Assembly: GCA_043805415.1 (NCBI GenBank)
Contig: JAZDHZ010000009.1
Coordinates: forward strand, 13,973-77,972
DNA from: Candidatus Omnitrophota bacterium
Lineage (GTDB): Bacteria > Omnitrophota > Gorgyraeia > B26-G9
Length of the DNA stretch: 64,000 nt
Direction of reading: 5' to 3'
The notes below the pieces were generated by a model. The model was not told where the DNA came from and made no database searches. It worked only from the letters and a program-made list of their open reading frames with translations. Positions 26,346 to 56,895 of this stretch are shown here, piece after piece. Position numbers and translations under genes: made by a program. Every line of letters begins with the position of its first letter. Position 1 is the stretch's first letter.

Positions 26346-28466
26346 ATGGAACTTAAAAAATGGGAGACTCCGGTTAAAGGTTCTCAAGAGGAAAAAGAAG
26401 TTATTGATTTACTTAAAGCATTTTCTTCAACCCTTAAAAAAATCCCGCTTTATCCGGCAACGCATCCAATGGTAAAAGACTCGATTTTACAGCTATACTT
26501 GAGCTTGGATGGGTTCTCAAAGAGATTCGGTGATTTTGTTTTAGATATTACTGACAAGAGCATCATGATCTGTGAGCAGCCATTTGAAGCCGCTGGGACG
26601 GGAAAAGATTTAACCGCGGAGTTTAAGAAAATATCAATAGAAGGAATGACTTTTAAGCAGGGAGTTCCTGATTATGAGCTGGAATCTTTTTTAAAGCTGT
26701 TTTTACTAAAGCCGGATATGATCAAAGAAAAAGGCGGAATTAAGGAGATAATGGCGCAGCAGGGAATAACTAAAATTGTGCTTAATGAAGTGCACTATGC
26801 CCGGATTAAGACTGAAGAAGAAATTAGAAAAAAGACAGACGAAGAAGCTGGATCAGGTGAAGGATCAGGCGAAGGTGCTGATGCTGGTGAAGGTGCTGAT
26901 GCTGGTGAAGGTGCTGATGCTGGTGAAGGTGAAGGTTCTGGTGCTGGCGTACATTCTAAACAAGAAGATAAAGATATTGTGGGAATGGTTAGTGATTTCT
27001 TTAGTGGAAAATCCGATGTGGTGCCGGATAAAGAAGTTATTTCCTATGAATTTAAAAAGAATGCCCGCAGAGTGGTCAAACAGTTGCTTGAACTTGTCGG
27101 ACCGGAAAAAGCAGTAGATGAGGTGCTGGCAATAATTGAAGATCGTTTTGATAAAGCTGGATTTACAACAGAAGAAAAAGATGTTTATGTTGAAAAAGTT
27201 AAAACCCAGATTATTAAATTAAAAACTCCTAAAATTTCAAAAAAAGATATGGAGAAACAATTAAAAGCTTTAAAATTAGAAAATAAAAAACTTCACGCTT
27301 TAGCGCAGGAAAATGAAAAACTGAAAAAAATGCTGAAAAACGCGGATCAAAGTATTGATCAGGCTGTTTTGAATGCTACCGCGGCGCTGGCAGATGAAAA
27401 CAAACAAATAAAGAGAGAAAAACATCGAATTAATTCTGTGCTTAAACACGTTGCTGAAGGTTTGATAATTATTGATAATGAGGGCAAGGTGCTTGTGCTT
27501 AATCCCGCTGCTGAGCAGCTTTTGGGGGCAAGTAAGGAAAGTAAAGTTGGACAGCATATTTTAGAAGACTTAAAAGAAGAGCAAATGGTTAGTTTGGCAA
27601 AAGATGGACAAAGAGAAATAGAAATAGAATTAGCCGGGCCTAGTGATGGAACAAAGAAAACTCTTCGCGCTAGTTCCGCGGTAATTGAAAATGAAGAAGG
27701 CCAGACCGTGGGAATGGTTTCTGTGTTGAGCGATATTACCCGGCAAAAGGAACTTGAGAAGATGAAGGATACTTTTGTTTCTAATGTAACTCATGATTTG
27801 AGAGCCCCGTTGATTTCGATTCAAAAAAGTTTATCTTTAGTCCTCGATATTGCTAAAGATACTATGCCGCAGGAACAGAAGCAATTTCTGGAAATAGCGA
27901 GTAATAATGCTTCGCGCTTAACTAGTTTGGTTAATGATCTTCTTGATGTGGCAAAACTTGAATCCGGGCGAGCTCGTTTGGAATATAGTAAAACGAGTAT
28001 GGAGGAAGTGGTAAATACAGTTTTTGACATGTTGGGAGCTTGGGCTAATAGCCGGGGAGTAAAACTGGAAAAAGAAGGAATCGCGGATATTGTTTTTGAC
28101 TCAGACGCAAAACTGCTGGGACAGTTGTTTACAAACCTTGTGGGCAACGCGATAAAATTTACTCCTTATGGCGGCAGTATTAAAATTACCGCGGAGAGAA
28201 TTGATAAAGATATTAAGATTGCGGTTATTGATACTGGCTGTGGTATTCCAGCTGATAGCCTGGAGAAAATTTTCGGTAAATTTGAGCAGGCGAAAACCAT
28301 ACCAACCAGCGGTTCGCCCAAAGGCACGGGTCTGGGACTGACAATTGTAAAAGAAATTGTTTTGCTCCATGGCGGCAAGATTTGGGTTGAAAGTGAAATT
28401 GGCAAAGGCAGTAAATTTATTTTTGTACTCCCGGCTGAGAAAGAGGTTTTGGATATTCGTGATTAA
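26346..28466 (+). CDS. cytoplasmic sensor histidine kinase (N-terminal domain of unknown type, Gly/acidic repeat, coiled coil, PAS, HisKA, HATPase)
   Basis: No TM helix; PAS (VLVLNPAAEQLLG); H-box THDLRAPL; N, G1, G2 ATP-lid motifs; internal GEGADA repeat. Confidence 0.85.
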   Translation: MELKKWETPVKGSQEEKEVIDLLKAFSSTLKKIPLYPATHPMVKDSILQLYLSLDGFSKRFGDFVLDITDKSIMICEQPFEAAGTGKDLTAEFKKISIEGMTFKQGVPDYELESFLKLFLLKPDMIKEKGGIKEIMAQQGITKIVLNEVHYARIKTEEEIRKKTDEEAGSGEGSGEGADAGEGADAGEGADAGEGEGSGAGVHSKQEDKDIVGMVSDFFSGKSDVVPDKEVISYEFKKNARRVVKQLLELVGPEKAVDEVLAIIEDRFDKAGFTTEEKDVYVEKVKTQIIKLKTPKISKKDMEKQLKALKLENKKLHALAQENEKLKKMLKNADQSIDQAVLNATAALADENKQIKREKHRINSVLKHVAEGLIIIDNEGKVLVLNPAAEQLLGASKESKVGQHILEDLKEEQMVSLAKDGQREIEIELAGPSDGTKKTLRASSAVIENEEGQTVGMVSVLSDITRQKELEKMKDTFVSNVTHDLRAPLISIQKSLSLVLDIAKDTMPQEQKQFLEIASNNASRLTSLVNDLLDVAKLESGRARLEYSKTSMEEVVNTVFDMLGAWANSRGVKLEKEGIADIVFDSDAKLLGQLFTNLVGNAIKFTPYGGSIKITAERIDKDIKIAVIDTGCGIPADSLEKIFGKFEQAKTIPTSGSPKGTGLGLTIVKEIVLLHGGKIWVESEIGKGSKFIFVLPAEKEVLDIRD
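26847..26948 (+). repeat. In-frame tandem repeat, 18-bp unit GAAGGTGCTGATGCTGGT x3 plus degenerate flanking copies (encodes SGEGSGEGADAGEGADAGEGADAGEGEGSGAG)
   Basis: Direct inspection of sequence 26847-26948. Confidence 0.9.
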
Positions 28467-30258
28467 TCGAAGCGTTGGACAAACCCCGGTAAATCTAGAA
28501 CAGTTCTTGCTTGAAGTCAGAAAGCCGGCGCGGTATATCGGCAATGAGTATAATAGTATTGAAAAAGAACAAACTCAAGATATGATCAACTTTGCTCTCT
28601 GCTTTGCTGATGCCTATGAACTGGGCATGAGTCACCTGGGAGTTAAAATTCTTTATTCGATTTTAAATCAATTGGATGATGTTTATTGTGAACGCTGTTT
28701 TTCTCCTTGGCTAGATATGGAGAAAAAAATGCGCGAGCATAAGATCCCGCTTTTTGCCATTGAAACAGCCCGTCCGATTACTAATTATGACATTATCGGT
28801 TTTTCTTTGCAGTATGAACTGGGATATACTAATCTGCTGAATATGCTGGATCTCAGCAATATCCCTTTATACAGCAAGGATAGAGATATGAGCCATCCGC
28901 TGATAATTGCCGGAGGTCCCTGCAGTACCAATCCCGAGCCCATGGCTGATTTTATTGATGTTTTTTTTGTCGGTGAAGCCGAAGAGCTGATAATTGAATT
29001 TATTAAAGTTTTTCGCGAGTTTAAAAATAAGCAGTGTCTGGGAATGGAGCTTAATGATAAAAAAGAGCTTAAGAATAAAAGAGATGAGCTTTTAAAGAAA
29101 CTGGCGCAAATTCCCGGGCTGTATATTCCTAAGTTTTATGCTTATGATCAAAATAATGTTCTTAGACCAGAAAATAAGGATATTGCCGAAACCATAACCA
29201 GGAGATTTGTGGCGGATTTAGATGCAACGCCTTATTTTACTAAGCCGCCAGTGTCTTATATTGAGATAGTGCATGACAGGATAAGCATCGAGATTATGCG
29301 GGGTTGTCCAAATAAATGTTTTTTTTGCCAAGCGGGTTTTACGATAAATCCTGTTCGAATTCGAAAAATAGATACGATTTTGGCTTTAGCTAAAGAAACA
29401 TATGCTAATACTGGATATGATAATATATCTTTTTGTGCTTTATCTAGCGCGAATTATCCATATCTTATTGAGCTAATTAAAGTAATGCATTCTTTTTGCC
29501 ATCCCCGAGGCATGGGGATTTCTTTGCCTTCCTTAAGGGTGGATACCCAGTTTTTGGGCCTTATTTCCATGCTTGAGGGCCTTAAAAAAAGCGGACTTAC
29601 TTTTGCTCCGGAAGCAGGAAGCAGCAGATTGAGAAAGATTATAAACAAAGACATTGATATTGAAGCTTTAAAACTTGCCGTGCTGGAAGCTTATCGCAAA
29701 GGCTGGAAAAGACTTAAACTTTATTTTATGATTGGTTTGCCGACTGAAACGGAAGAAGATTTAGTGGCAATCGTAAAAATGATCGAAGATTTTTCTGCTT
29801 TGCGCAAATCAATTGATGGGAGATGGGGGCAAGTTAGCGTCGGGATATCTAATTTTATCCCTAAATGCCATACTCCTTTTCAGTGGCTGGGAATGGAGTC
29901 AATCGAAGCTTTGCGGCAAAAGCAGGACTTTTTACGCCAAAGGCTAAACCGGAAAAGTTTTGAAGTGGATTTTCATGATCCGGCAATGAGCTTTGTTGAA
30001 GCCTGCATGTCGCGGGCAGATAGAAGGCTAGGGACTGTGATTAAACAGGCCTTTGACAATGGGGCAAGGTTTGATGCCTGGACTGGTGTTTTTAATTTTG
30101 AACTTTGGGAAAAAGCTTTTGAAGTTACCGGGGTTGATCCAAAGGACTATGTATATAAGGGAAAAAACTTTGATGCCCCATTACCCTGGGATCATATAGA
30201 CTGTGGTTTTGCCAAAGATGGATTAATCAAAAATGCTAAAATAGCGGCTAATGCATAA
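28457..30258 (+). CDS. B12-binding-domain radical SAM protein (uncharacterised TIGR03960-like family)
   Basis: N-terminal cobalamin-binding-like domain; CxxxCxxC (CPNKCFFCQAG) radical SAM core. Proposed GTG start overlapping the HK stop with GAGG RBS; start uncertain. Confidence 0.65.
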
Positions 30259-30527: not shown

Positions 30528-30938
30528 ATGGAAGAAAAAATAAAAGTATTGCTTGTCGATGATGAAGTTGACTTTATTAATATGATGCAGTATTGGCTTA
30601 AAAGCAAAAATTTTGACGCGGATGTTCTTTACAGCGGTGAAAATGTTGTGGAGCAGGTTAAAGCTAAAAATTATGATTTAATGTTTCTTGACCTTAGATT
30701 GCCAGGTATTGATGGTTTGGATATTTTACGGCAAGTAAGACAATATTCCAAGAAACTCCCAGTAATAATTTTTAGTGCCTTTGGTACAGCTGAAAGTTTG
30801 AAAGAAGCAACCAAGCTGGGGATCTCTGGTTTTTTCGCAAAAGAAAAAGGGTTTGAAGAAGCCGCGCGTTTGATTTATACAGCATTGCGGATACACAAAG
30901 GTTTAGCGCATTCTGATGCTGAGGAAGGAGAAAAGTAA
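30528..30938 (+). CDS. single-domain response regulator (CheY-like receiver)
   Basis: DDE acidic pocket, phospho-acceptor Asp (FLDLRLPGIDG), conserved Ser (FSA) and Lys (AK) receiver residues; 136 aa, no output domain. Confidence 0.85.
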   Translation: MEEKIKVLLVDDEVDFINMMQYWLKSKNFDADVLYSGENVVEQVKAKNYDLMFLDLRLPGIDGLDILRQVRQYSKKLPVIIFSAFGTAESLKEATKLGISGFFAKEKGFEEAARLIYTALRIHKGLAHSDAEEGEK

Positions 30939-30939
30939 T

Positions 30940-32004
30940 ATGGCAGTTGAAATGGGAAAATTACTCCGAATCCTTATTGAACGCAATGGGTCTGATTTGC
31001 ACTTAGGAGCAAATACTCCACCGCATATCAGGGTGGATGAAAAGATGTTGAATATTAGTGATGATATATTAACTCCGATTGATTGCCAGGAGCTTATATA
31101 TAGTATACTTAGTCCTGAAGAAGTGGAAAAATTTGAAAGAGAAAAAGAACTGGATCGCTCTTTTGAAATTGAAGGGATGAGTCGTTTTCGAATGAATGTT
31201 TTCTTTCAAAGAGGTCAGGTTGGCTGCGCGATTAGAGTTATTCCTTTTGATATTCTTTCATTTAGTCAATGCGGTTTACCAATAAAAATTGTTACAAGCT
31301 TAGCCAGAAAACCCAAGGGTTTGGTTTTAGTAACCGGCGCTACCGGATCGGGAAAATCAACAACCTTGGCATCAATTATCAATTTAATTAACGAGGAAAG
31401 ATCCTGCCATATTATTACGGTAGAAGATCCGATTGAATTTGTACACAAAAACAAAATGGCAGTTATTGATCAGCGAGAAGTGGGACAGGATACAAAATCT
31501 TTCGCGAAAGCATTAAAGCATGTTTTGCGCCAAGATCCGGATGTTATTCTTGTTGGTGAAATGCGGGATCTGGAAACAATTGAAGCGGCTTTAACTATTG
31601 CTGAAACCGGGCATCTTGTTTTTGCCACTTTGCATACTTCAGACGCTGTGCAAACTGTAAACCGGATTATTGACGTATTCCCTTCGCATCAACAGCAACA
31701 GGTACGCACCCAATTATCATTTGTTTTGGTAGGAATAGTTTCCCAACAATTGATTCCGAAAGTCGGCGGTACTGGCAGAGTTTTAGCTGCTGAGGTGATG
31801 CTGGCAACTGCGGCTGTAAAAAGCATGATCAGAGAACAAAAAGTGCATCAAATCTACTCAATTGTCCAAACCGGACAAAAAGATGGGATGAAGACAATGA
31901 ATCAGTCTTTGTACGAACTTTATACTGAGAAACATATTACTTACGAAGACGCGGTATCGCGTTCAACCGATCCCGACGATTTAATCCGACTATTTAAGAG
32001 ATAA
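30940..32004 (+). CDS. pilT: type IV pilus retraction ATPase PilT
   Basis: Walker A GATGSGKST, Asp box, His box, PilT-type AIRNLIRE-like motif (AVKSMIREQK); GGAGGAG RBS before ATG 30940. Confidence 0.9.
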   Translation: MAVEMGKLLRILIERNGSDLHLGANTPPHIRVDEKMLNISDDILTPIDCQELIYSILSPEEVEKFEREKELDRSFEIEGMSRFRMNVFFQRGQVGCAIRVIPFDILSFSQCGLPIKIVTSLARKPKGLVLVTGATGSGKSTTLASIINLINEERSCHIITVEDPIEFVHKNKMAVIDQREVGQDTKSFAKALKHVLRQDPDVILVGEMRDLETIEAALTIAETGHLVFATLHTSDAVQTVNRIIDVFPSHQQQQVRTQLSFVLVGIVSQQLIPKVGGTGRVLAAEVMLATAAVKSMIREQKVHQIYSIVQTGQKDGMKTMNQSLYELYTEKHITYEDAVSRSTDPDDLIRLFKR

Positions 32005-32006
32005 AC

Positions 32007-32621
32007 ATGGCTATTAAAAAATCAAAAACAAAACAGCTTGGGCAGTTATTGATGGAAAAAGAGATCATCACTCATGGCCAGCTGGATCAGGCGCTTGAAA
32101 TTCAGCTCAAAGATGGCGGTTTGCTGGGGCAGATACTTATTAAACTGGGATTTGTTACCGAACAGCAGATTGAAGACAGTGTTTTTGAGCAAACAACTAA
32201 TTCCCAAAAGCTTGAAAATGTGCTTATGGAAATGGGGATAATCACTCAAGAGCAGATAAATCTAGCTAATGATTTGGAGAAAAAAGAGGGTAGTTTTTTC
32301 GCGCAAAACATTATTAAGCTGGGGTTTCTTGGAGCCGAAGATTTAGTAAGCATTATGGTGACTCAATTCGGATTTCCTTATTTACAGCTAGAAAATTACG
32401 AAATAGATCCTGAAATAGTAAAGCTTGTTCCCCAAAATATTGCCCAGAAATTCAGTTTAATCGCTATTGATAAAATAGGAAATATTTTAACAATAGCCAT
32501 GGCTGACCCTCTAAACGCGAAAGCCCAAGATGAAATAAGAAAAGCTACAGGCTTAAACGTGGAAACTTTTATTTCTACTTATTCTGAAATAGAAGCTGCC
32601 TTGACAAAGAATTACAAATAA
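32007..32621 (+). CDS. stand-alone MshEN-like (putative c-di-GMP-binding) repeats plus T2SSE_N domain, no ATPase domain
   Basis: Two pairs of MshEN-type ~24-aa motifs (LGQLLMEKEIITHGQLDQALEIQ / LLGQILIKLGFVTEQQIEDS; VLMEMGIITQEQINLA / FAQNIIKLGFLGAEDLVSIM), then GspE_N fold (…IAIDKIGNILTIAMADPLN…). Confidence 0.7.
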   Translation: MAIKKSKTKQLGQLLMEKEIITHGQLDQALEIQLKDGGLLGQILIKLGFVTEQQIEDSVFEQTTNSQKLENVLMEMGIITQEQINLANDLEKKEGSFFAQNIIKLGFLGAEDLVSIMVTQFGFPYLQLENYEIDPEIVKLVPQNIAQKFSLIAIDKIGNILTIAMADPLNAKAQDEIRKATGLNVETFISTYSEIEAALTKNYK

Positions 32622-32649: not shown

Positions 32650-34362
32650 ATGACTCAGAGTTTAAAAGAAAAAATGATGGATGTTTTGACCCGGTCTAAT
32701 TTCTTAACGAAAGAACAATTAGACGAAGCGATAGAGGCTCAGAAGAAAACTGGCCGGCGTTTAAGTGATGTTTTGACAATGATGGGGTATATAACCCAAA
32801 AAGATTTAGTTATTGTCTTAAGTCAAAGCTTAAATATTCCTCCGATAAACCTGGCGAAAGTTAAGATCAATCCGGAAATAGTAAAAATCATTCCTCGAGA
32901 ATCTGCTGAAAAGTACCAAGCGCTGGTAGTTTCCAAAATTGGTAAAGTTCTTACGGTTGCGATGGTAGACCCGCTTAATGTTTTGGCAATTGATGAACTA
33001 AAAGTATTGACCAACTATGAATTAAAAATTGTTGTTGCCGAGGAAAAAGAACTTAAAGTCGCGATTAATACTTATTATAGTGACTCGACTAATGAGCAAA
33101 TTAGAAATATTATTGATGACGCCAAGGACATGAATCTGGAAATTATTGAGGATGCTGACAGTCAGGAAAAAATATTTAATACTGCTCAGATGCTTAAGGA
33201 TGTTGAAGGCGCGCCGATTGTTAAAATCACCAACATGCTTTTAGCCCAGGGAATAAAAAATCAAGCCAGTGATATTCTGATCGAACCACAGGAAAAAGTT
33301 TTACGTATCCGCTACCGTTTAGATGGGATTTTAAAAGAATTTCCCGCGCCGCCAAAACATATGGAAGAAGCAATTGTTTCACGGATAAAAGTTTTGTCAG
33401 TTCTCAATATCGCTGAACATCGATTGCCTCAGGACGGCCGGTTTAAAATTAAAGTGGCGGATCGGGAAGTGGATTTCCGTGTTTCGATTATGCCGACAAG
33501 TCATGGGGAAAAAGTCGCTTTGCGTGTTTTGGATAAAACCGCGGTGGTTTTGGATCTGGATAAGATGGGCTTTGAACCGGATGGGCTTAAAATTATAAAA
33601 GAACTGGCCATGGAGCCGCATGGGATGATGCTTATATGCGGACCAACCGGAAGCGGTAAATCAACAACGCTTTATTCAATTCTGAAGTATGTTGATGATC
33701 CGGAAAAAAATATTTGCAGCGCGGAAGATCCGGTTGAATACCAGCTTGAAGGAATAAATCAGGTAAATGTTAATCCTGAAGTTGGATTGACCTTCTGCGG
33801 CGCGCTGCGTTCTTTTTTACGTCAAGATCCTGATGTTATCATGGTTGGGGAAATCCGCGATACCGAAACTCTGGATATTTCGATTAAAGCCGCGCTTACC
33901 GGACATCTTGTTTTAAGCACTTTGCACACCACTGAGGCGGCTGGAGCAGTAACCAGAATGGTTAATATGGGGATTGAACCTTTTTTAATTACTTCTTCCT
34001 GTATTATGGTCTGCGCTCAAAGATTAATCCGCAAAATTTGTCCTGATTGCAAAGAAGGCTATCCGATACCTGCTGAAATAAGAAAAAAATTTAAGATCGG
34101 GGAGCAATATAAAACATTATTCAAAGGCAAGGGGTGCAAAACCTGTCAAGGCACTGGATACAAGGGAAGAATCGGTATGTGCGAAGTTCTGGCCTTAACC
34201 CCTGAAATACGTGATTTAATTATGGTTAGAGCGCAGGAAAATTTAATTAAGGCTAAAGCCCGCGAACAGGGAATGGTTACTTTAAGAGAGCATGGAGTAA
34301 TTAAATGTTTAAAAGGGATTACGACATTGGAAGAAGTTACAAGGCTAACTGCTGACGATTAA
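32650..34362 (+). CDS. pilB: type IV pilus assembly (extension) ATPase PilB/GspE family, paralog 1
   Basis: N-terminal MshEN-like motif, T2SSE_N, Walker A GPTGSGKST, tetracysteine CPDC…CKTCQGTG. Confidence 0.9.
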   Translation: MTQSLKEKMMDVLTRSNFLTKEQLDEAIEAQKKTGRRLSDVLTMMGYITQKDLVIVLSQSLNIPPINLAKVKINPEIVKIIPRESAEKYQALVVSKIGKVLTVAMVDPLNVLAIDELKVLTNYELKIVVAEEKELKVAINTYYSDSTNEQIRNIIDDAKDMNLEIIEDADSQEKIFNTAQMLKDVEGAPIVKITNMLLAQGIKNQASDILIEPQEKVLRIRYRLDGILKEFPAPPKHMEEAIVSRIKVLSVLNIAEHRLPQDGRFKIKVADREVDFRVSIMPTSHGEKVALRVLDKTAVVLDLDKMGFEPDGLKIIKELAMEPHGMMLICGPTGSGKSTTLYSILKYVDDPEKNICSAEDPVEYQLEGINQVNVNPEVGLTFCGALRSFLRQDPDVIMVGEIRDTETLDISIKAALTGHLVLSTLHTTEAAGAVTRMVNMGIEPFLITSSCIMVCAQRLIRKICPDCKEGYPIPAEIRKKFKIGEQYKTLFKGKGCKTCQGTGYKGRIGMCEVLALTPEIRDLIMVRAQENLIKAKAREQGMVTLREHGVIKCLKGITTLEEVTRLTADD

Positions 34363-34383: not shown

Positions 34384-36102
34384 ATGCGTAGGACAAAAAA
34401 ACGTCTTAATGAGCTTTTGCTGGATTACAATTTAATAAGCGAAAAAGATGTTATTAGCGCTTTAGAAATTCAGCGCAAAAGAGGCGGACAATTAGCGACA
34501 ATATTAATCGAGGAAAATTTTGTTAAAGAAGAAGATATTGTAACTTGTTTTTGCCGTTATTTAAATGTTCCTCCGATAAACCTTTCCAAATTCCATGGCG
34601 ATGAAAAAAAGATAAAACTTATTCCCGAACACGTTGCAAGACATTATCGTTTGATCTGCATATCGCAAGTTGGTAATATGCTGACAGTAGCGATGTGCGA
34701 TCCTTTGAACGTGCTGGCGATTGATGATATTAAGGCTTTAACGGGTTATGATATTATTCCAGTGGTATCAGCATTGAGCGGGATTACATTAGCGGTTGAT
34801 CGTTTCTATCATCATAAAGAAGAGGTTAAGACTGAAGAAAGTTTTGATGATTTAGTCAAAGAAATCAATGAGGATGATATTCAGCTGGTTAAAGAAATTG
34901 AACAGATTGATATCGGGGATGTTATCAGATCAAGCAGCGAAGCGCCGATAGTCAAGATGCTTGATGCTTTAATCGCTGAAGCATTGATGAAAAGGGCTTC
35001 GGATATTCATATCGAACCATATGAGACAAAAATAAGAGTACGCTATCGAGTTGACGGAGCATTGCAGGAAGCAGCGATTTTACCGAAAAAGATTCAAAAC
35101 GCGATAGCCGCGAGAATAAAGATTATGTCTAACCTGGATATTACGCAAAGGCTTGTTCCTCAGGATGGAAGATTTAAAGTAAGGCTTGGCGATAAAGAAG
35201 TTGATTTTCGTGTTTCTATTTTACCAATCAGTTTTGGGGAAAAAGTGGTAATGCGTGCTTTGGATAAAGCTAATCTTAGTATCGGTCTTGAGGCTTTAGG
35301 TTTTTTGCCGCAAGCAATGGATGCTTTTGCCTACGCGGTTGCTCAGCCTTATGGAATGATTCTGGTAACTGGTCCGACTGGAAGCGGTAAATCAACCACG
35401 CTGTATTCGGTTTTAAATAAACTTAATGTTCCGGAGCGCAATTTGATTACAATCGAAGATCCGGTTGAATATCAGGTAGATGGAATAACCCAGGTCCAAG
35501 TAAAAGCTGATGTCGGGCTTACTTTCGGTCAGGGACTGCGGGCAATTTTACGGCAAAATCCCGATATTCTTATGGTTGGAGAAATTCGTGATTTTGAAAC
35601 CGGAGATATCGCGGTAAAAGCAGCTTTGACTGGAGCCTTGCTGTTAAGCACATTGCATACTAATGATGCTCCGGGAGCGGTAACCCGGCTTATTGATATG
35701 GGCATAGAGCCGTTTCTTATTGCCAGCAGTGTTATTGCTGTCGCGGCGCAGCGGTTAGCACGTTCAATTTGTCCTAATTGCAAGGAGGCTTATAAAATTC
35801 CCCAATCAGTTTTAGATAGAATGGACCTTGTCCTTGACGCGGAAAAAATTACTGTATACAGAGGTAAGGGTTGTGATAAATGCGGAGGAACCGGGTATAA
35901 AGGACGTTTTGCGATTCTCGAAGTAATGGTGGTAAATGATGCAATCAGAGAAATGATAATGAATCGCAATTCCAGTGATGAAATAAAGCGTTATGCCAGG
36001 AAAAAAAACGGGATGTTGACTTTACGCGATTCCGGCATTCAGAATTTTCTTAAAGGTCAGACAACTCTTGAGGAGGTATTAAGAGTAACCTCCAAAGAAT
36101 AA
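34384..36102 (+). CDS. PilB/GspE-family ATPase, paralog 2
   Basis: Same architecture (MshEN-like N-terminus, GPTGSGKST, CPNC…CDKCGGTG); ~40-45% identical to paralog 1. Confidence 0.9.
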   Translation: MRRTKKRLNELLLDYNLISEKDVISALEIQRKRGGQLATILIEENFVKEEDIVTCFCRYLNVPPINLSKFHGDEKKIKLIPEHVARHYRLICISQVGNMLTVAMCDPLNVLAIDDIKALTGYDIIPVVSALSGITLAVDRFYHHKEEVKTEESFDDLVKEINEDDIQLVKEIEQIDIGDVIRSSSEAPIVKMLDALIAEALMKRASDIHIEPYETKIRVRYRVDGALQEAAILPKKIQNAIAARIKIMSNLDITQRLVPQDGRFKVRLGDKEVDFRVSILPISFGEKVVMRALDKANLSIGLEALGFLPQAMDAFAYAVAQPYGMILVTGPTGSGKSTTLYSVLNKLNVPERNLITIEDPVEYQVDGITQVQVKADVGLTFGQGLRAILRQNPDILMVGEIRDFETGDIAVKAALTGALLLSTLHTNDAPGAVTRLIDMGIEPFLIASSVIAVAAQRLARSICPNCKEAYKIPQSVLDRMDLVLDAEKITVYRGKGCDKCGGTGYKGRFAILEVMVVNDAIREMIMNRNSSDEIKRYARKKNGMLTLRDSGIQNFLKGQTTLEEVLRVTSKE

Positions 36103-38236: not shown

Positions 38237-38280
38237 AGAACGATTATTTTAATATTTTTTTTAAAACAAGAGCTGAGCCG

Positions 38281-38865: not shown

Positions 38866-38878
38866 GCGGTGAAAAATA

Positions 38879-40582: not shown

Positions 40583-40598
40583 AATTACTAAGAGAAAG

Positions 40599-41472: not shown

Positions 41473-41499
41473 TCTAAAAAGGGGGAATGGGGAAAGCTT

Positions 41500-41955: not shown

Positions 41956-41974
41956 TCTTAGGGGAGACGCGAAT

Positions 41975-42625: not shown

Positions 42626-42650
42626 TTTTTTTTAAATAAGGAGAAACGCA

Positions 42651-45425: not shown

Positions 45426-45462
45426 TTTTAAAATAAATCGATATTAAATCATTGGGGGAAAT

Positions 45463-49075: not shown

Positions 49076-49092
49076 TTGGCACGCCTAGTGCT
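49076..49092 (+). promoter_or_regulatory. sigma-54 (-24/-12) promoter for the pilA cluster
   Basis: TTGGCACGcctaGTGCT: GG-N10-GC spacing with TGGCAC -24 box and TGC -12 box, ~65 bp upstream of the pilA1 ATG. Confidence 0.65.
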
Positions 49093-49156
49093 CTAATAAC
49101 ATTGGTCTTAACTATTTGATAATTTGTAATTGGTAAACAATGAAAGGGGTGTTAGT

Positions 49157-49660
49157 ATGAATCGTAAGGGCTTTACATTGGTAGAAATCATGATCGTTGT
49201 AGCTATTATTGCTTTGTTGGCAGCAATTGCTATCCCTAACCTTATGCGTGCAAGACTTAACGCAAATGAATCAGCAGCTCAGTCTACATTAAAAACTGTA
49301 GCAACAGCGGTTGAAAGTTTTAGGGCAGCGCAAACTAATCCAACTTATCCGCCTTCTTCAACTGTAGCTGGAGTTGTGGGATTAACTGATGGAACCGCGG
49401 CTTCTCCTTCTTATTGTGATGCTGGAATTTTTGCTGCAGCCGGAAGACAAGGTTATATTTTTACTTATACACAATTGGGAACAGTTCTTGGACAGCAGTA
49501 TGTTGCTTCTTGTCAGCCTGTAACTTTTGGAGTAACTGGAATAAGAACATTTTCAATTAATGAAACTGGAGTGCTTAGAGCTTCAGCAGCTAATGCAGCC
49601 GCTATAACAGCTAGTCCAATCACTACACTTGCATATGCAGCTTTGACACCTGTTCAATAA
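49157..49660 (+). CDS. pilA: type IVa major pilin PilA (paralog 1)
   Basis: MNRKG|FTLVEIMIVVAIIALLAAIAIPNL, textbook T4a prepilin N-terminus; C-terminal Cys pair; AAAGGGG RBS. Confidence 0.9.
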   Translation: MNRKGFTLVEIMIVVAIIALLAAIAIPNLMRARLNANESAAQSTLKTVATAVESFRAAQTNPTYPPSSTVAGVVGLTDGTAASPSYCDAGIFAAAGRQGYIFTYTQLGTVLGQQYVASCQPVTFGVTGIRTFSINETGVLRASAANAAAITASPITTLAYAALTPVQ

Positions 49661-49681
49661 TTGATTAAACTGAAAACTAAA

Positions 49682-49718
49682 AGAGGGATTGTATAGAAAT
49701 ATATGATCCCTCTTTTTT
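49682..49718 (+). terminator. intrinsic terminator after pilA1
   Basis: AGAGGGAT…ATCCCTCT 8-bp stem followed by TTTTTT. Confidence 0.75.
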
Positions 49719-51203: not shown

Positions 51204-52475
51204 ATGGATAGATTGATAACCTTATTACCCTTTATCAGTGTTTTATTCTTAGTTGTTTTTTGGATTTTTAGTCCGAATATGGGCTCGGCGCTATTAACGA
51301 TTACGATTCCTTTTGTAATTTTTGCTTTTTACACTAATCTTAAGCGAAAACAGTTAATGCTGGAGCTGAAGGAAACAGTTAGATCCTTTCAAGCCGAAAA
51401 AGAAGAAATTATAAAAGAAATTCAAAAAAAAGAAAAAAAACAAAGAGAGCAATCAGAAGAATTAAGAGAATTTGGTAAAAGCCTTTCTACGGCAATTAAT
51501 AAAGACCAGCTTTTACGGTTGATTGTAAAAAATTTCAGCAAAGTAACTGAAACTGTTGAAGGGGAAAGTCAGTGTTTTCTTTTAACCCGGCAACAAGGCA
51601 CAGAAGAGTTTATTTACGAAGCCGGGCATAATTTTGACAGTAATACCTTGAAATCAACCCGGTTTAGTGAAAATGATGAAATTATTCAGTCAGTGGTAAA
51701 AACTAAAAAAATTCACACTTTTATTAGTGATATTTTTGGGGGCGATTCAAATATAAGGTACTTTCTTAAGGAAGAGAGAACTACTTATCTTTCTCAATTG
51801 GGGTCTTTAGCGCTTATCCCGCTTATAATGGAAGAGGAAGTTTGGGGAATTATAGTAGTTTTTTGTCGAGAAGGTTCTGCTGCGCATATAAAAAATGATG
51901 AGTCGTTTTTTAGGCTTTTAGTCACACAAGCTTCTATTGCTTTAGGCAGTGCTATTCATCGTGATCTGGCTTCGGTAGATAAATTAACTCAATTATATAA
52001 TCGGACTTTTTTGCAAAAACGGATGAAAGAGGAAATTGAGTTTTGCAATCGACAACTTCTGCCTTTGAGTCTTATGATGCTTGATATTGACCATTTTAAA
52101 GTGATTAATGATACCTATGGCCATCAAGAAGGCGATATGGTTTTGAAAAAAATAGCGCAAATTATCAGTAAAAGTGTTAGATTAACTGATATCTGCGCGC
52201 GTTATGGCGGTGAAGAGTTTGTTATTGTCTTGCCTGGAATTGAAGAAATCGCGAATGATAAGTTTTCCATTGCCGAAAAATTACGTCAAGGGGTGGAAAA
52301 TTCTGATTTTGTTGTTCTCGGGGATAAACATATAAAAGTTACGATTAGTGTGGGAGTTACAGTTCGCAGATATCCTAGTGATAAAGATTTAGGAATGAAT
52401 GAACTTATCCAAAGAGCTGATCAACTGCTTTATAAAGCGAAAAAAGAAGGCAGAAATAGAGTTTGTTATGCTTAG
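51204..52475 (+). CDS. membrane-anchored GAF-GGDEF diguanylate cyclase with intact I-site
   Basis: Two N-terminal TM helices, coiled coil, GAF-like domain, GGDEF domain with active RYGGEEF and RxxD (RLTD) five residues upstream. Confidence 0.85.
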   Translation: MDRLITLLPFISVLFLVVFWIFSPNMGSALLTITIPFVIFAFYTNLKRKQLMLELKETVRSFQAEKEEIIKEIQKKEKKQREQSEELREFGKSLSTAINKDQLLRLIVKNFSKVTETVEGESQCFLLTRQQGTEEFIYEAGHNFDSNTLKSTRFSENDEIIQSVVKTKKIHTFISDIFGGDSNIRYFLKEERTTYLSQLGSLALIPLIMEEEVWGIIVVFCREGSAAHIKNDESFFRLLVTQASIALGSAIHRDLASVDKLTQLYNRTFLQKRMKEEIEFCNRQLLPLSLMMLDIDHFKVINDTYGHQEGDMVLKKIAQIISKSVRLTDICARYGGEEFVIVLPGIEEIANDKFSIAEKLRQGVENSDFVVLGDKHIKVTISVGVTVRRYPSDKDLGMNELIQRADQLLYKAKKEGRNRVCYA

Positions 52476-52512: not shown

Positions 52513-54189
52513 ATGTTTCAAAAAAGTATTGATTCAATAGGACTGGAAATTGGCGATGGTTTAGTTAAGGCAATGCATATGCGTTCCTCGGCTAAAGAAA
52601 ACAAACTTCTGGGATATGAAGTTGTTGCCGTGAATTTTAGAGAAGGCCGCCAAGGTATTGTAAACGCGATGAATGATGTCTTGAGCCGTCTTTCGCTGAA
52701 CAAGAAAAAACATAAAGTTAATATCTCGGTTTCTGGTGAATCAGTCATGGTCAGGGATATTCATTGGCCGCAAATGGCTGATGAAGAGATCCGTAAAGCT
52801 TTAAAGTTTGAAGTAGAAAGACAGGTACATTATAAAACAGATGAAATTGTATTTGATTATTATTCTGTTTTAGACAAAACTATCGCGGAGACAAAAACAA
52901 GAGTAATTCTTGTCGCGGCTAAAAAAGATCTTATTGAAAACTATGTTAGTCTTATTGATTCAACTGGGTATCAATGCGGGTTTATCGAAGTAGATACATT
53001 TAGCTTGCTAAATTGTTTTTACGTGAATGGGCCTAAAGTTCCCGCGGAAAAAACAATAGCAATAATTAATATCGGAATGGAAGTTACGAATATTGATATA
53101 ATCCGCGGTAAGATTGTGGGCTTAACAAAAGATGCTTTTGTTGCTTGGAGTAATCTTATTGACGCGTTGCCCGCGGAGGTTGAGTTAGATTTTTCCGATG
53201 TAACTTCGCTTAAAGGTGTGATGGGCACAGATGATGTTTATGAGTTAAGCCTGTTTATTATGAATGCTCTTTCAAATCAGATAAGGCGGACGATTGAGTT
53301 CTATGAAAGCCAAGGCCGTGATACTGTTGAAGAAATCTACTTAAGCGGAAAAGTATCGATGTATAAGAATTTAGATAAATATTTAAAAAACATTTTGGGA
53401 TTACAGGTTAGTATCTGGGATCCGCTGGCTAATGTCCAATATGATCCCAAACAGTTCGCGGATAAGAAACTTAAAGACCAGGGTTTAATGCTTGCCGTTT
53501 GTACTGGGCTTGCCTGTCATCGATCGTTTAATATTAATCTGGCGTCTAGTAAAAAAGAAATTAAAAAGAACAAGGTGATGAAATTTGTTAACCAAAATAA
53601 AATCTTGTTTTATATCGCGGCAATTGTTATTTTAACCTTGATAGGAGTTTGGGTTATTTTAGTCAGTCAAGTAAAAATGAAAGAAGCAAATAAGCATAGG
53701 CTGATTGAACAGAACCAAAAGCTGGAAGGGATTTTGCGGGACATTGATTATTTGAAGCAAGGCAGAGTCACTTTGCAACAGCATATGTTGATCGCCAAGA
53801 CTTTGCTTTCCCGGAGAATTATCTGGGGTAAGAAGTTTTATCAAATAAGTGAAAATTTGCCGGAAGAAATGTGGCTGACAGAATTATATATAAAGGAAGA
53901 ATTAGCGACTAAGATAAAATCCCAGTTTGATTCAATAACTGATATTGGAAGTTTTAATGCCATGGGTAGTCAGGAAAAAGAGAATATCCAGATATTGATT
54001 ATAAAAGGAACCGCGTTTTCCAAAGCAAATGATAAAATGCTTAAAATGATAAATGATTTTATTAATGCCCTGAAGTATAATCAGGATTTCGCGAAGGACT
54101 TTTTATCCATAGAATTAAAACGCTCACAACGTGTTGATATCGGTGATCGAGCGATTATGAAATTTAGCATGGAATGTGTTTTAAAATAA
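52513..54189 (+). CDS. pilM: PilM-PilN fusion protein (actin-like PilM + TM helix + PilN periplasmic domain)
   Basis: N-terminal ~350 aa PilM actin/FtsA-like fold, internal TM helix (ILFYIAAIVILTLIGVWVILV), coiled coil and PilN-like C-terminal ~200 aa. Confidence 0.75.
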   Translation: MFQKSIDSIGLEIGDGLVKAMHMRSSAKENKLLGYEVVAVNFREGRQGIVNAMNDVLSRLSLNKKKHKVNISVSGESVMVRDIHWPQMADEEIRKALKFEVERQVHYKTDEIVFDYYSVLDKTIAETKTRVILVAAKKDLIENYVSLIDSTGYQCGFIEVDTFSLLNCFYVNGPKVPAEKTIAIINIGMEVTNIDIIRGKIVGLTKDAFVAWSNLIDALPAEVELDFSDVTSLKGVMGTDDVYELSLFIMNALSNQIRRTIEFYESQGRDTVEEIYLSGKVSMYKNLDKYLKNILGLQVSIWDPLANVQYDPKQFADKKLKDQGLMLAVCTGLACHRSFNINLASSKKEIKKNKVMKFVNQNKILFYIAAIVILTLIGVWVILVSQVKMKEANKHRLIEQNQKLEGILRDIDYLKQGRVTLQQHMLIAKTLLSRRIIWGKKFYQISENLPEEMWLTELYIKEELATKIKSQFDSITDIGSFNAMGSQEKENIQILIIKGTAFSKANDKMLKMINDFINALKYNQDFAKDFLSIELKRSQRVDIGDRAIMKFSMECVLK

Positions 54190-54198
54190 GGGAAAATA

Positions 54199-54792
54199 AT
54201 GAAAAAACAACTCGCTAAAAAAGATCAAATACTAATATCTGGAATTATTGGAATTTTCATAGTGGTTGTTCTGGTATTTGTCACAGTATTTCAGCCTTTA
54301 ATCGCGAAGATATTAGATTATAATAAGCAGGAAAAGCTGATTAATGAACAGCTTGCAAAAGTTGAAAGTATGTCTGCGGATAAAGAAAAACTATCGGTCG
54401 AGATAGAAAATATCGGCAAAAAAATTGAATATTTTGAAAAAAAATTGCCGCAACAGACCGATATTCCGGAAATACTTGAGGAGTTGATTAAAATCGGCGA
54501 AAAAAGCAATGTTACCTTTGTAATGATTGAGCCCCAGAATACCAAGCAAATAGCCGTGGGCGATTCTCAAGATAAAACTTATCTGGAAATTCCAATTGAA
54601 GTTAAGCTAAAAGCAGGGTTTCATCAGTTCGCGGAATTTGTTAATGGAGTAGAAAATTTTCAAAGATTCATGAAAGTAGATAATATAAAAATTACTTCAA
54701 AAGATGACAGTTCTGAGAAATTGCATGAGGCAAGTTTAACGGTCAGTGCTTTTGCGATAGAAAGAAATAAGGCTGATGAAAAAACTAATTAG
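54199..54792 (+). CDS. pilO: type IV pilus assembly protein PilO
   Basis: N-terminal TM helix, coiled coil, ferredoxin-like periplasmic domain; position after pilMN. Confidence 0.7.
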   Translation: MKKQLAKKDQILISGIIGIFIVVVLVFVTVFQPLIAKILDYNKQEKLINEQLAKVESMSADKEKLSVEIENIGKKIEYFEKKLPQQTDIPEILEELIKIGEKSNVTFVMIEPQNTKQIAVGDSQDKTYLEIPIEVKLKAGFHQFAEFVNGVENFQRFMKVDNIKITSKDDSSEKLHEASLTVSAFAIERNKADEKTN

Positions 54793-55219
54793 ATATAATT
54801 CAACATTTTTATTTTGGGCAATAATTATTTTAATAAATTCAATGCCGTGGAGCATTAATTATTTTGTTTTAACCGCACGTTGCGAGCAGTTAAATAAAGG
54901 GGAAGAAGAAACCGAAGTATTTGTTTACACCCGCGATGAACGACGGGATCCATTTGTTTCATTGATTGATAAAAGTGGAGATTATAGGGATAATGTGCCT
55001 AGTACAAAAGAAGAAATGATGGACTTGATTAAACTTATCAAGATTGGCGGAATTCTCTGGGATGAAGAAATGCCTTTGGCAATGATAAATAATGAGATTC
55101 ACAAAATTGGCGATATTATCAATAATCTAACAATTAAGCAAATTACCCCTGAATCAGTTACTTTTAGTTATTCTGATTTAACTCATACTATCACTATTAT
55201 TGAAAAGAAAAATTTTTGA
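54776..55219 (+). CDS. pilP: PilP-like small periplasmic protein
   Basis: 147 aa, signal/TM N-terminus, C-terminal beta-domain; position between pilO and pilQ. Confidence 0.5.
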   Translation: MKKLIRYNSTFLFWAIIILINSMPWSINYFVLTARCEQLNKGEEETEVFVYTRDERRDPFVSLIDKSGDYRDNVPSTKEEMMDLIKLIKIGGILWDEEMPLAMINNEIHKIGDIINNLTIKQITPESVTFSYSDLTHTITIIEKKNF

Positions 55220-56895
55220 ATGCCAAGGAGGAATTAATGGAATCTGAAAAACTAATCTCAAGGAAGAGAATTGCTAGAATATTATTTTTATCTGCCGCGA
55301 TTTGGATTTTGGCAAGTATTGATTTGGGGCAATTATCTTATGCTGAGCAAAGCGCTCAGCCTGAGTCGCGCAACCAAGGGACTATAGAAGAAGCGGAAAA
55401 TGATGGAAAGTTAATTTCTATAACCCTTAAAGAAACTGATATTAGAGAGGTTTTAAACATTCTCGCGTTTAAGGGCGGCGTTAATATCGTTGCCGGAGAT
55501 GATGTTGATTCAAAAATTTCCGTGCAGCTGAAAGATGTTCCTTGGGAACAGGCGCTTGATGTGATCCTTAAAACTTATAATTATACTTATAAACGTGAAG
55601 GAAATCTTATTCGGGTTATGAGTTTGGCTCGAGCGCTTGAAGAAGAAGGCAAGACCCCGCTTAAAACTAAAATAATACCGCTTAATTTTGCTGATGTTAG
55701 CGGGTTAAAAGACTCTCTGAATAAGATGCTGAGCAAAAGAGGAACAATGGAAATTGATAAGCGGACTAATTCCTTGATTATTACAGATATTCCTGAAATG
55801 GTTGATGCCATCGAAGAATCATCTATTCAGCTTGACACGCTGACTCCGCAGGTATTGATTGAGGCAATGATGGTTGATATTAAAATAACCGATGCTAATC
55901 AATGGGGATCATTGATGAATATAATTGATTTGAAATCTCCGAACAATACTAATAATTTAAGTAATGATTTAACCACAGCGTTTACAAATCTTTTCAACTT
56001 TAGCACTGTAACGGAAAACTTTGACATAACTGGTACGATAAATATGCTTGTTGAAGAAGGGATGGCTTCAATTCTTGCTAATCCCAAGGTGCTTACTCTT
56101 GATAATCAAGCAGCCATGATAGAAATAACAACAGAAATTCCTTATTCTGAATCTGTTGATTCCGGCGGCGCGGTTACTACCACTATTAAGTTTAAAGACG
56201 CGGGAATTAAATTATCGGTTACGCCGCATGTTACCAGCGGTAGATTTATTTCGATGAATGTAATGCCTGAGCAAAGTTTTCAATCTGGTTTTGCTGAAGG
56301 AACAACGCAGCCGATTATTGATAAACGCAAAGCGGAAACAAATCTCCTGGTTAAAGATGGACAAACAATTGTTATCGGCGGATTAAGGCAGACAACTGAT
56401 AATTTAACTCAGCAAAAGTTTCCTTTTTTAGGTGATATCCCGTTCATGGGGCTATTTTTTAGAAACAAAATCAGGACTAAAGTCGAGACGGAACTAGTTA
56501 TTTTTGTAACTCCGCATATCATTGAAACATCACTTTTAACTGATAGAGAAATTGGATTGTTTGAAAAGCTGGATAATACAGCACGTTTAGTGGTTGATGA
56601 GCGTTCTGAAATGCAAAGATTTAAAGAGTTTATGAAACTTTCTAAAAAAGCTGAGAAAATTGCTGATCAAGAAACCAAGCGGATGAGAGTTGAAAAAAAT
56701 TCAAAAGCTGAATCAATGATTTCTAGTTCTCAATATGACGCGCAATCAGCGGAGCCATTAATAACTCAGAAAAAAGAGCAGGAAGATACTTATCATCAAA
56801 AAGAGCAGGAAGATGCTTATCATCCGAATGATTCCTTGGACTATGAAGCCAATAAATTCAGAGAATCAATTAATCTGTTAAAAAATGAATATTAG
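55216..56895 (+). CDS. pilQ: type IV pilus secretin PilQ
   Basis: Secretin N-domains; conserved secretin C-domain (LANPKVLTLDNQAAMIEI…, IVIGGLRQ…FPFLGDIPFMGLFF…LVIFVTPHII); extra K/E-rich C-terminal tail with a 27-bp tandem duplication (KEQEDxYH x2). Confidence 0.9.
   Translation: MNAKEELMESEKLISRKRIARILFLSAAIWILASIDLGQLSYAEQSAQPESRNQGTIEEAENDGKLISITLKETDIREVLNILAFKGGVNIVAGDDVDSKISVQLKDVPWEQALDVILKTYNYTYKREGNLIRVMSLARALEEEGKTPLKTKIIPLNFADVSGLKDSLNKMLSKRGTMEIDKRTNSLIITDIPEMVDAIEESSIQLDTLTPQVLIEAMMVDIKITDANQWGSLMNIIDLKSPNNTNNLSNDLTTAFTNLFNFSTVTENFDITGTINMLVEEGMASILANPKVLTLDNQAAMIEITTEIPYSESVDSGGAVTTTIKFKDAGIKLSVTPHVTSGRFISMNVMPEQSFQSGFAEGTTQPIIDKRKAETNLLVKDGQTIVIGGLRQTTDNLTQQKFPFLGDIPFMGLFFRNKIRTKVETELVIFVTPHIIETSLLTDREIGLFEKLDNTARLVVDERSEMQRFKEFMKLSKKAEKIADQETKRMRVEKNSKAESMISSSQYDAQSAEPLITQKKEQEDTYHQKEQEDAYHPNDSLDYEANKFRESINLLKNEY

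Follow-up and report, generated by a model that had tools for sequence, protein, structure and literature searches.

The 64,000-nucleotide (nt) stretch analysed here (the window; part of contig JAZDHZ010000009.1 of a Candidatus Omnitrophota bacterium) carries, at positions 26346-56895, a contiguous block of type IV pilus genes. In this study, we have explored its signs of control by cyclic di-GMP (c-di-GMP). The best explanation, to which we give a probability of about 0.62, is that the block is a type IVa pilus cluster typical of an Omnitrophota clade, in which c-di-GMP would act at the levels of synthesis by an enclosed cyclase, sensing by RNA ahead of two minor-pilin modules, and the pilus motor. 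This reading is carried by two class I c-di-GMP riboswitches (c-di-GMP-I, or GEMM-I), by a stand-alone MshEN protein that keeps residues lost from the two neighbouring PilB ATPases, by a cyclase with intact motifs, and by the recurrence of the whole arrangement in other Omnitrophota genomes. Each of these mechanisms has precedents; what is new is the conserved Omnitrophota architecture, the enlarged aptamer, the candidate receptor split off from the motor, the duplicated leaders with G or A in the ligand pocket, and a possible coupling of a riboswitch to a leader open reading frame (ORF).

Omnitrophota are uncultivated, and type IV pili are their most plausible attachment tool; to our knowledge, nothing has been described on the regulation of these pili. 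Our literature search found no report of c-di-GMP riboswitches in Omnitrophota, nor of Omnitrophota pili or c-di-GMP at this locus. The parts of the proposed system are compact and conserved (one cyclase, one putative receptor of 204 amino acids (aa) and two aptamers of about 175 nt) and can be tested in vitro without culture. All coordinates below are positions in the window, and the parts of the block described lie on the forward (+) strand.

Class I c-di-GMP riboswitches ahead of the minor-pilin modules

Two minor-pilin modules (37829..41021 and 41470..45876), which would be alternative operons for minor pilins and tip proteins, follow pilC, and each is preceded by a leader whose aptamer (37547..37720 in leader 1, 41239..41413 in leader 2) is flanked by a sigma-70 promoter and an intrinsic terminator. 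As in canonical c-di-GMP-I aptamers (RF01051, e.g. Vc2), we found a P2 with a GNRA hairpin and a GC closing pair, the GCAAAGCC junction, a P3 with its CUAA receptor, and an ACCGAA 3' end. Rfam RF01051 matches leader 2 at 41248-41412 with 38.8 bits (gathering threshold 35) and an alignment gap of 84 nt; leader 1 is sub-threshold, scoring 29.4 bits with the related GGC model, whose gathering threshold is 59. Using a covariance model built from 11 relatives, from which the window and its two closest relatives had been left out (Model R1), we obtained exactly two hits in the 64-kb window, leader 2 at 132 bits (E 7e-28) and leader 1 at 122 bits (E 1e-25). When 11 leaders are aligned, pairing in the core helices amounts to 98.2%, compensatory changes are seen in four pairs of P2, and the covariation score was reached by none of 500 shuffles. 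Furthermore, in each of the four relatives scanned (L095, L096, L093 and L058), a c-di-GMP-I family model matches the spacer between pilC and the minor-pilin genes above gathering, so that a riboswitch occupies the syntenic site in every relative examined; the one in L095 is a canonical aptamer without insertion (67.7 bits). Because of these syntenic family matches, the covariation and the hits of a model made from relatives only, both leaders are, on comparative grounds, genuine c-di-GMP-I riboswitches. RNA-level control by c-di-GMP is thereby supported more strongly than the sequence-only reading, which had called the leaders GEMM-like, had claimed.

Compared with canonical RF01051, the window aptamers are enlarged by an insertion of about 80 nt that forms two hairpins and sits precisely where the 3-nt GAC bulge of P2 meets the GC pair closing P2. 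We scanned one genome per species for a P2 hairpin, a stretch of 60-90 nt and GCAAAGCC, and retrieved 92 loci; a subset of 31 from Omnitrophota, Planctomycetota and Elusimicrobiota has the same enlarged design, with insertions of 42-90 nt or more in these phyla. In 30 of the 31, the inserted stretch alone folds into a pair of adjacent hairpins, with sequences that are unrelated between lineages, and in the leaders of another Omnitrophota locus (L140) the core and expression platform are identical and the inserted hairpins differ in sequence and length. The insertion is a peripheral elaboration of GEMM-I. Competing P2 hairpins and a broken tandem aptamer were considered as alternatives and ruled out, given the canonical aptamer of L095, the position of the gap exactly at the GAC bulge and GC pair, and the two hairpins in 30 of 31 members. 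The insertion drops Rfam scores to the gathering limit, and leader 1 was therefore missed; with current Rfam thresholds, some c-di-GMP-I riboswitches of Omnitrophota, Planctomycetota and Elusimicrobiota thus go undetected. In the retrieved set, most genes located 3' of Omnitrophota members encode pilus proteins (pilins, PilB-like, Flp-like).

A different elaboration was seen in L004, L013, L018, L023, L025, L049, L081, L082 and others (metagenome-assembled genomes of Bipolaricaulota, Acetothermia and Thermotogae), where an apparent second complete c-di-GMP-I aptamer is nested within P3: the first P3 5' strand (GCAAAGCUACGGACCUUCUAGG) is followed by the entire second aptamer and then by the closing strand (CUAAUGGUGGCCGAGCCGCUAG). 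Such pairs would be nested rather than serial tandem riboswitches.

Ligand pocket of the two leaders

At the position equivalent to G20 of Vc2, leader 1 has A and leader 2 has G (AAUAGCAAACC versus AAUGGCAAACC). Wild-type Vc2 binds c-di-GMP with picomolar affinity and cyclic GMP-AMP (cGAMP) at 10 uM, and its G20A variant binds c-di-GMP at 53 nM and cGAMP at 120 nM (PMC6140456). By analogy with this variant, leader 1 would have a lower affinity for c-di-GMP and possibly accept 3',3'-cGAMP as well, and the two modules may switch at different c-di-GMP thresholds.

A rival explanation is that leader 1 is a GEMM-Ib-type riboswitch for 3',3'-cGAMP, or a bispecific one, and that the two modules answer different dinucleotides. 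The A itself speaks for it, as do the bispecificity that G20A confers on Vc2 and the existence of natural A20 aptamers that are cGAMP-selective (PMC6140456); A recurs at the same site in the relatives L062, L048 and L043. The cGAMP riboswitches of Geobacter (GEMM-Ib) likewise share the fold, the A at position 20 and an association with surface- or pilus-related genes (PMC8835794, PMC6140456), but here A20 is found in only one of two leaders and no Hypr GGDEF enzyme is present. In the locus cyclase, the guanine-specifying residues are the canonical Asn/Asp (NDTYGH..GD) and not the Hypr Ser variant, and no CD-NTase was found within the 64-kb window. Hypr GGDEF enzymes carry this Ser at the guanine-specifying position. 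In addition, leader 1 differs from leader 2 by very few bases and the leader copy looks recent; the A may simply reduce affinity. We consider a cGAMP switch improbable, and a different threshold for the same ligand is favoured because the locus cyclase has the canonical guanine-specifying residues.

Expression platform and switch direction

Both leaders have a near-consensus sigma-70-type promoter (TTGACA-17-TATACT; 37479..37507 in leader 1, where it is conserved in relatives, and 41182..41210 in leader 2) and an intrinsic terminator made of GCCGAGCUACC, a 9-nt loop and GGUAGGUCGG followed by U6 (37743..37778 and 41436..41471). The terminator lies about 20 nt 3' of the aptamer without overlapping it, and unconstrained minimum-free-energy folding yields its hairpin, so that a simple ON design finds no support. 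In both leaders a seven-codon ORF, MIAELPK*, overlaps the terminator 5' arm (37737..37760 and 41430..41453). An ORF of the form M-[I/T/A]-A-E-L-P-(K/T), with AUG and in-frame stop, occurs in 15 leaders of the minor-pilin type, stops in the terminator loop or 3' arm, and is preceded at 7-10 nt by a Shine-Dalgarno (SD)-like AAGGA or AGGGG located within the 3' strand of P1. Its codons vary synonymously for Leu (CUA, UUA, CUG), Lys (AAA, AAG) and Ile (AUA, AUC). Besides the window, its carriers are L009, L026, L058, L062, L071, L075, L094/L095, L096, L110, L114, L134 and L140.

P1 is the ligand-dependent helix of GEMM-I. The most economical mechanism would therefore be that c-di-GMP closes P1 and hides the SD-like AAGGA, that the leader ORF then stays untranslated, and that the terminator forms and turns the operon OFF; with no ligand, a ribosome on the leader ORF would let RNA polymerase read through. 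There is a variant of the second step. Over about 30 nt, the terminator 5' arm and loop nearly repeat the sequence of the aptamer 3' half (GCCGGGUUACCGAAAUAAAAAGG versus GCCGAGCUACCGAAAUAAAAGG; 37700-37762 and 41393-41455), and both the aptamer 3' half and the terminator 5' arm are for this reason able to pair with the terminator 3' arm. With no ligand, the freed aptamer 3' half could do so and give read-through. Because the ligand-dependent P1 covers the SD-like element of an ORF lying on the terminator 5' arm, we lean slightly towards OFF as the switch direction, and a leader-peptide step in the switching is put forward more tentatively, as an idea that we find somewhat doubtful.

Several observations pull the other way. 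Since the terminator nearly repeats the aptamer 3' half, its leader ORF could be accidental: paralogous leaders ahead of other pilus genes (L074, L077, L090 and L102) retain the near-copy with no AUG, and the Leu-codon changes are compensated in the terminator stem. When full and truncated leaders were folded and their complementarity inspected, no classical antiterminator helix was found, and thermodynamic folding, in which the terminator forms unconstrained, does not reveal the switch direction. Two further pairings were tried and rejected. A long-range helix that would join the 5' UAUCGAUAAUGGC to the spacer GCCAAUGAUA finds no support in covariation, with L026 and L062 changing the 5' side uncompensated, and an alternative P1 formed with the terminator loop is unsupported in L075, where P1 covaries and the loop does not.

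The opposite direction deserves consideration, namely that both leaders are ON switches, that c-di-GMP induces the minor-pilin operons as it does pilA1 in Clostridioides difficile, and that priming, motor activation and cyclase expression are thus aligned. This would be coherent with the stimulation of pilus assembly by c-di-GMP that is reported for MSHA of Vibrio cholerae (PMC7096442) and for C. difficile (PMC6200980 and PMC6366702). In all orthologues, moreover, the aptamer 3' half is pairable with the terminator 3' arm, and its locking in the bound aptamer could alter the choice of terminator. However, the spacer of about 20 nt between the aptamer and the terminator 5' arm means that a bound aptamer cannot occlude the terminator, whose hairpin forms alone in unconstrained predicted folds, and P1, the only ligand-sensitive helix, covers the SD-like element, the occlusion of which would favour termination. 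We therefore regard ON switches as unlikely, and OFF remains the direction that we prefer.

Two known systems help to place this design. The pilA1 riboswitch of C. difficile belongs to class II and, as an ON switch, governs the major pilin. It resembles the window in joining a c-di-GMP riboswitch and a terminator in the control of type IV pilus genes, but the window has class I aptamers, minor-pilin modules and a direction that is probably OFF. In the Salmonella mgtA leader, an Mg2+ riboswitch and the leader ORF mgtL jointly decide on transcription elongation. The likeness is that a single 5' leader combines a riboswitch with a short ORF; ligand and fold are different, and the coupling proposed here is a hypothesis drawn from sequence conservation. 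We know of no riboswitch-plus-leader-peptide design described for cyclic dinucleotides. If the coupling were true, it would represent a novel mode of action of cyclic-dinucleotide riboswitches.

A stand-alone MshEN protein as candidate receptor of the motor

Three consecutive genes encode an MshEN protein of 204 aa with MshEN as its sole domain (32007..32621) and two extension ATPases that combine MshEN with T2SSE, PilB1 (32650..34362) and PilB2 (34384..36102), which are 46% identical to each other. The sequence-only reading had proposed that all three N-termini are of the MshEN type and bind c-di-GMP directly, like MshE of V. cholerae. Its first half was confirmed by Pfam, with PF05157 scores of 69.7 (stand-alone protein), 63.1 (PilB1) and 58.8 bits (PilB2) against a cut-off of 23.1. 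The second half was not supported by alignment of the binding residues in the case of the PilBs. In MshEN the c-di-GMP binding part is formed by the first 60 residues or so, and in the PilBs the Pfam match covers residues 60-147, which is the C-terminal subdomain and not the binding bundle. The backbone NH of Gly3 reads guanine O6/N7, and this glycine is fixed even in the relaxed motif (PMC5013675); motif position 1 was later extended to R/K/L (PMC11731258). We scored 11 key positions in each of the two 24-residue motifs, (R/K/L)LGxx(LVI)(LVI)xxG(LVI)(LVI)xxxxLxxxLxxQ, that lie 5 residues apart (PMC5013675, PMC11731258). PilB1 reaches 6/11 and 7/11 with Gly3 replaced by M and S, and PilB2 8/11 and 5/11 with Gly3 replaced by N and A; orthologues of both in Omnitrophota show the same losses of Gly3. 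The stand-alone protein reaches 8/11 and 9/11 (residues 10-33 and 39-62, spacer 5) with Gly3 in both motifs.

Direct binding by both PilBs as well as by the stand-alone protein is thus an unlikely reading, though not one devoid of arguments. All three proteins exceed the Pfam cut-off, motif I of PilB2 retains R1, L2 and Q24 in its 8/11, and the Asn that stands at position 10 is also found in PilB of Geobacter metallireducens, so that not every deviation marks degeneracy. These arguments are countered by the position of the Pfam match outside the binding bundle and by the replacement of Gly3 in four of four PilB motifs and likewise in the orthologues. An instructive reference is Thermus thermophilus PilF, whose GSPII-A domain scores better than either PilB (10/11 and 6/11, with G and A at position 3) and yet was left as a non-binder, c-di-GMP binding being attributed only to GSPII-B and GSPII-C (PMC11731258). 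Hence a word of caution: a Pfam 'MshEN' match does not mean c-di-GMP binding.

Since the PilBs have lost Gly3 in all four motifs and the stand-alone protein keeps it, the latter is our receptor candidate; judged by motifs and predicted fold, it is a plausible receptor, and the PilBs appear to be without a credible c-di-GMP site. Both its motifs hold G3 and Q24, and in 22 homologues, with identities as low as 41%, G12, G41, Q33 and Q62 do not vary. Its predicted structure (AlphaFold2 (AF2), predicted local distance difference test (pLDDT) 82.5) consists of two four-helix bundles and an alpha/beta subdomain: an extra N-terminal four-helix bundle (residues 10-62, with the near-consensus motif pair) precedes a complete MshEN domain, whose own bundle is degenerate, with KLE and FFA in place of (R/K/L)LG. 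Foldseek searches with this model returned MshE with c-di-GMP (5HTL, E 4.7e-9) and the GSPII domains of PilF as the best Protein Data Bank (PDB) matches. Weighing against a receptor role, motif I has Gln in place of Arg, Lys or Leu at position 1, and a Glu is found at its position 10. In our model, the stand-alone protein would pass the c-di-GMP signal to PilB1 and PilB2 in trans, through a presumed contact with the motor.

Such a division of labour can be compared with known motors. MshE of the MSHA system of V. cholerae (5HTL) is likewise part of an extension ATPase system and takes up c-di-GMP through a four-helix bundle with two 24-residue motifs, but in the window the credible bundle is on a separate 204-aa protein without ATPase and the PilB motifs are degenerate. 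PilF of T. thermophilus shares with the stand-alone protein the presence of tandem MshEN-type bundles of which only some bind; the first bundle of the stand-alone protein aligns to GSPII-B, which has high affinity without Arg at motif position 1 (K/L) (PMC11731258), and its motif II begins with Leu. Unlike in PilF, a single ATPase of 889 aa, the extra bundles form a gene of their own that is conserved across Omnitrophota. In the FimX-PilZ-PilB system of Xanthomonas and Pseudomonas, a non-binding PilB N-terminus is reported to be served by a separate receptor (PMC8389850), and structures of XcPilB(N)-PilZ were among the Foldseek matches to our model. That receptor has a degenerate EAL domain and a PilZ adaptor; the putative one of the window has an MshEN fold, and its contact with PilB is conjectural. 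Combining both levels, a more specific hypothesis would be a linked pair consisting of a P1-gated leader-ORF attenuator and of sensing shifted from PilB to a double-bundle MshEN protein that serves two PilBs; we offer it as a speculative refinement, rather improbable in its entirety. As a side observation, metagenomes contain more than 70 clusters of single-bundle stand-alone MshEN proteins (131-188 aa), some of them annotated 'PilB', and MshEN proteins without ATPase look like a widespread family.

The cyclase and the extent of the circuit

The cyclase gene (51204..52475) encodes a membrane-anchored GAF-GGDEF protein that has two hydrophobic segments at its N-terminus, a GAF domain that matches weakly, and a catalytic domain (PF00990, 159.8 bits) that is intact. 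Alignment to DosC and other cyclases identified RLTD-ICARY-GGEEF (an RxxD I-site five residues ahead of GGEEF), DIDHF and NDTYGHQEGD, in agreement with the RYGGEEF motif and I-site given by the sequence-only reading. Control at the enzyme level is supported by this predicted active site, the I-site and the guanine-specifying residues, all intact: the cyclase would make c-di-GMP and be product-inhibited through RxxD.

The further claim of a self-contained c-di-GMP circuit was overstated. Neither a c-di-GMP phosphodiesterase (EAL, HD-GYP) nor a PilZ gene was found among the ORFs scanned in the 64-kb window, and because no phosphodiesterase is encoded there the circuit is not self-contained. Together with the fact that a locus-encoded cyclase need not act locally, and with the lack of a prepilin peptidase PilD and of rpoN among the same ORFs, this tells against our overall interpretation. 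An alternative involves no dedicated circuit: the cyclase would feed a cell-wide pool, the histidine kinase, radical-SAM and response regulator genes at the head of the block would be unrelated neighbours, and the block would be a conserved neighbourhood beside housekeeping operons. In its favour are the missing phosphodiesterase, the radical-SAM gene without known pilus role, and the location of the block between mreBCD-pbp2-rodA and rimP-nusA-infB in all relatives, since gene order may reflect low rearrangement. On the other hand, the cyclase is located within the pilus block, flanked by the pilin genes and pilM, in the two relatives examined at this place (L095 and L096), GGDEF orthologues share contigs with MshEN orthologues in several further genomes, and riboswitch and MshEN receptor candidate lie directly beside their presumed targets. 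We take this alternative seriously but find it less convincing than a pilus cluster with c-di-GMP inputs of its own.

Conservation of the cluster and duplication of the minor-pilin module

The MshEN-only protein matches a protein of a Candidatus Omnitrophota metagenome-assembled genome with 100% identity. Relatives were located by placing homologues of the MshEN-only and GGDEF proteins in their contigs. In L093, L094, L095 and L096, whose compared proteins are about 59-67% identical to those of the window, the order MreCD-PBP2-RodA, histidine kinase to PilQ, RimP-NusA-IF2-TrpS recurs, and the block itself reads RodA/histidine kinase/radical-SAM/REC/PilT/MshEN-only/PilB/PilB/PilC/minor-pilin module/PilS/PilR/pilins/GGDEF/PilMN/PilO/'PilP'/PilQ/RimP. 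Because the same order is found in other Omnitrophota genomes, the presence of all layers in one cluster, which had been called notable, is the norm of the clade: the cluster is indeed single, but the whole arrangement is standard for an Omnitrophota clade and not peculiar to this genome. It resembles the pil cluster of Myxococcus and Geobacter in its contiguous type IVa pilus genes and in the control of pilA by PilSR and sigma-54; the order in those bacteria is pilB-pilT-pilC-pilS-pilR-pilA ... pilMNOPQ, with PilSR and sigma-54 controlling pilA. By comparison, the Omnitrophota cluster adds a second pilB, an MshEN-only gene, riboswitch-led modules and an internal GGDEF gene.

There are also differences among the relatives. 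Unlike the window, they have an extra PilT-like ATPase gene between radical-SAM and REC (7387-8457 in L093, 7420-8493 in L094), where the window has a gap of about 270 nt (30259-30527), and they have two pilins as compared to three. In one of them (L095, 9800-9988), a 62-aa gene of the MerR-type helix-turn-helix (HTH) family precedes the cyclase gene. The window has a 73-aa ORF of no recognisable family at 50995-51216, overlapping the cyclase start; we considered it as the counterpart of the L095 gene and found no such similarity.

The relatives have one minor-pilin module and the window two. In L058, the closest relative fetched (about 90% protein identity), PilC is followed by one leader and the orthologue of module 2, which is also present in L095 and L096. 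As module 1 is absent from L058, this module and the copied leader were added in the lineage of the window, and module 2 is ancestral. The proteins of the two modules are only 17-28% identical, as opposed to about 95% identity of the two leaders across some 310 nt, from promoter through terminator. We looked to composition for a horizontal origin of module 1, but GC content (0.33-0.43) is uniform across the locus and uninformative. In the Omnitrophota locus L140 (SDBU01000001.1, minus strand), two riboswitch-led minor-pilin modules (leaders 9167-9334 and 4101-4313) are also found, and such duplications therefore recur.

Pilin promoters and PilS/PilR

The PilS-type sensor kinase (45942..47234; HisKA and HATPase_c, with 6TM_PilS at 24.4 bits below its cut-off of 27) and the adjoining PilR (47236..48588; REC, Sigma54_activat at 238.8 bits, HTH_8), a sigma-54 enhancer-binding response regulator, were identified by Pfam as the sequence-only reading had proposed. 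The latter had also placed all three pilA genes under sigma-54. This holds for the major pilin candidate pilA1 (49130..49660; probable start ATG 49157), which has a -24/-12 element, TGGCACGCCTAGTGCT (TGGCAC-N5-GTGC), at 49077..49092, about 65 nt ahead of this ATG and matching 10/11 specified positions. With up to 2 mismatches the pattern gives 25 matches in the window versus 28.7 expected; as it is not enriched, the pilA1 site rests on its quality and position. In the other two genes the proposal fails: pilA2 (49817-50320) has one weak GG-N10-GC site (5/11) and pilA3 (50373-50849) none. We propose that pilA1 would be controlled by PilS/PilR and sigma-54. It is followed by a strong 17-bp intrinsic terminator (49679-49716), pilA2 has a sigma-70-like promoter with extended -10, and pilA3 begins 52 nt after pilA2; the three pilins are 42-52% identical among themselves. 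Sigma-54 promoters were also sought, and none found, for the GGDEF gene, pilM and the leaders. The spacer between pilR and pilA1 is unusually long (540 nt, 48589-49130) and contains repeats (CTAATCG five times at 48879-48915 and GGCTAATGGCTGATGGTCGATGGCTAATAG near 48630) that could possibly be PilR sites or part of a small RNA.

Other genes of the block and its surroundings

A Pfam scan of the ORFs recovered the listed genes across 26346-56895: the type IVa set PilB, PilT, PilC, PilM, PilO and PilQ is present with class III signal-peptide pilins, and N_methyl motifs occur in 7 proteins. In the assembly part, PilM, PilO (54199..54792) and PilQ (55216..56895; STN, Secretin_N, Secretin) were confirmed, but the assignments of PilN and PilP were less secure. 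PilM is fused through a transmembrane segment to a C-terminal part at the PilN position (52513..54189; PilM_2 at residues 10-336), and this part, which has no Pfam match, was assigned from position and size; the PilP-position gene (54776..55219) has no Pfam PilP match and a T2SSB score of 23.9 bits, below the cut-off of 28.4. Both positions are kept in L095 and L096. Each minor-pilin module comprises two N_methyl pilin-like genes, one large protein without Pfam match and one small protein: pilin-like proteins of 135 and 194 aa, a PilX-like protein of 567 aa and one of 140 aa in module 1, and pilin-like proteins of 161 (probable start ATG 41500) and 216 aa with proteins of 924 and 137 aa in module 2.

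Upstream, the retraction ATPase PilT (30916..32004, 362 aa, T2SSE) and, beyond the PilBs, the platform protein PilC (36217..37422, two T2SSF domains) complete the motor genes. The block opens with a histidine kinase (26346..28466; PAS-HisKA-HATPase), syntenic in L093 and L094, and also includes a single-domain response regulator (30528..30938, REC). Between these two, in all relatives, lies a radical-SAM gene (28357..30258, with a true start probably near 28465) of the Radical_SAM_N2 type, with Radical_SAM and a weak B12-binding match; its orthologues in L093 and L094 (587-597 aa) are in the same position, and we know of no link between such a gene and pili. On either side lie housekeeping genes (MreBCD-PBP2-RodA upstream, RimP-NusA-IF2-TrpS downstream). 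Some 17 kb upstream of the pilus block, at 8009-9517, there is a gene for a ComEC competence channel; it is compatible with a role of the pilus in DNA uptake, though not evidence for such a role. Finally, two in-frame repeats were seen in the block, a tandem repeat in the kinase (26850-26947) that encodes its low-complexity (GEGADA)n linker, and a 27-nt duplication (KEQEDxYH) at the C-terminus of PilQ (56771-56824).

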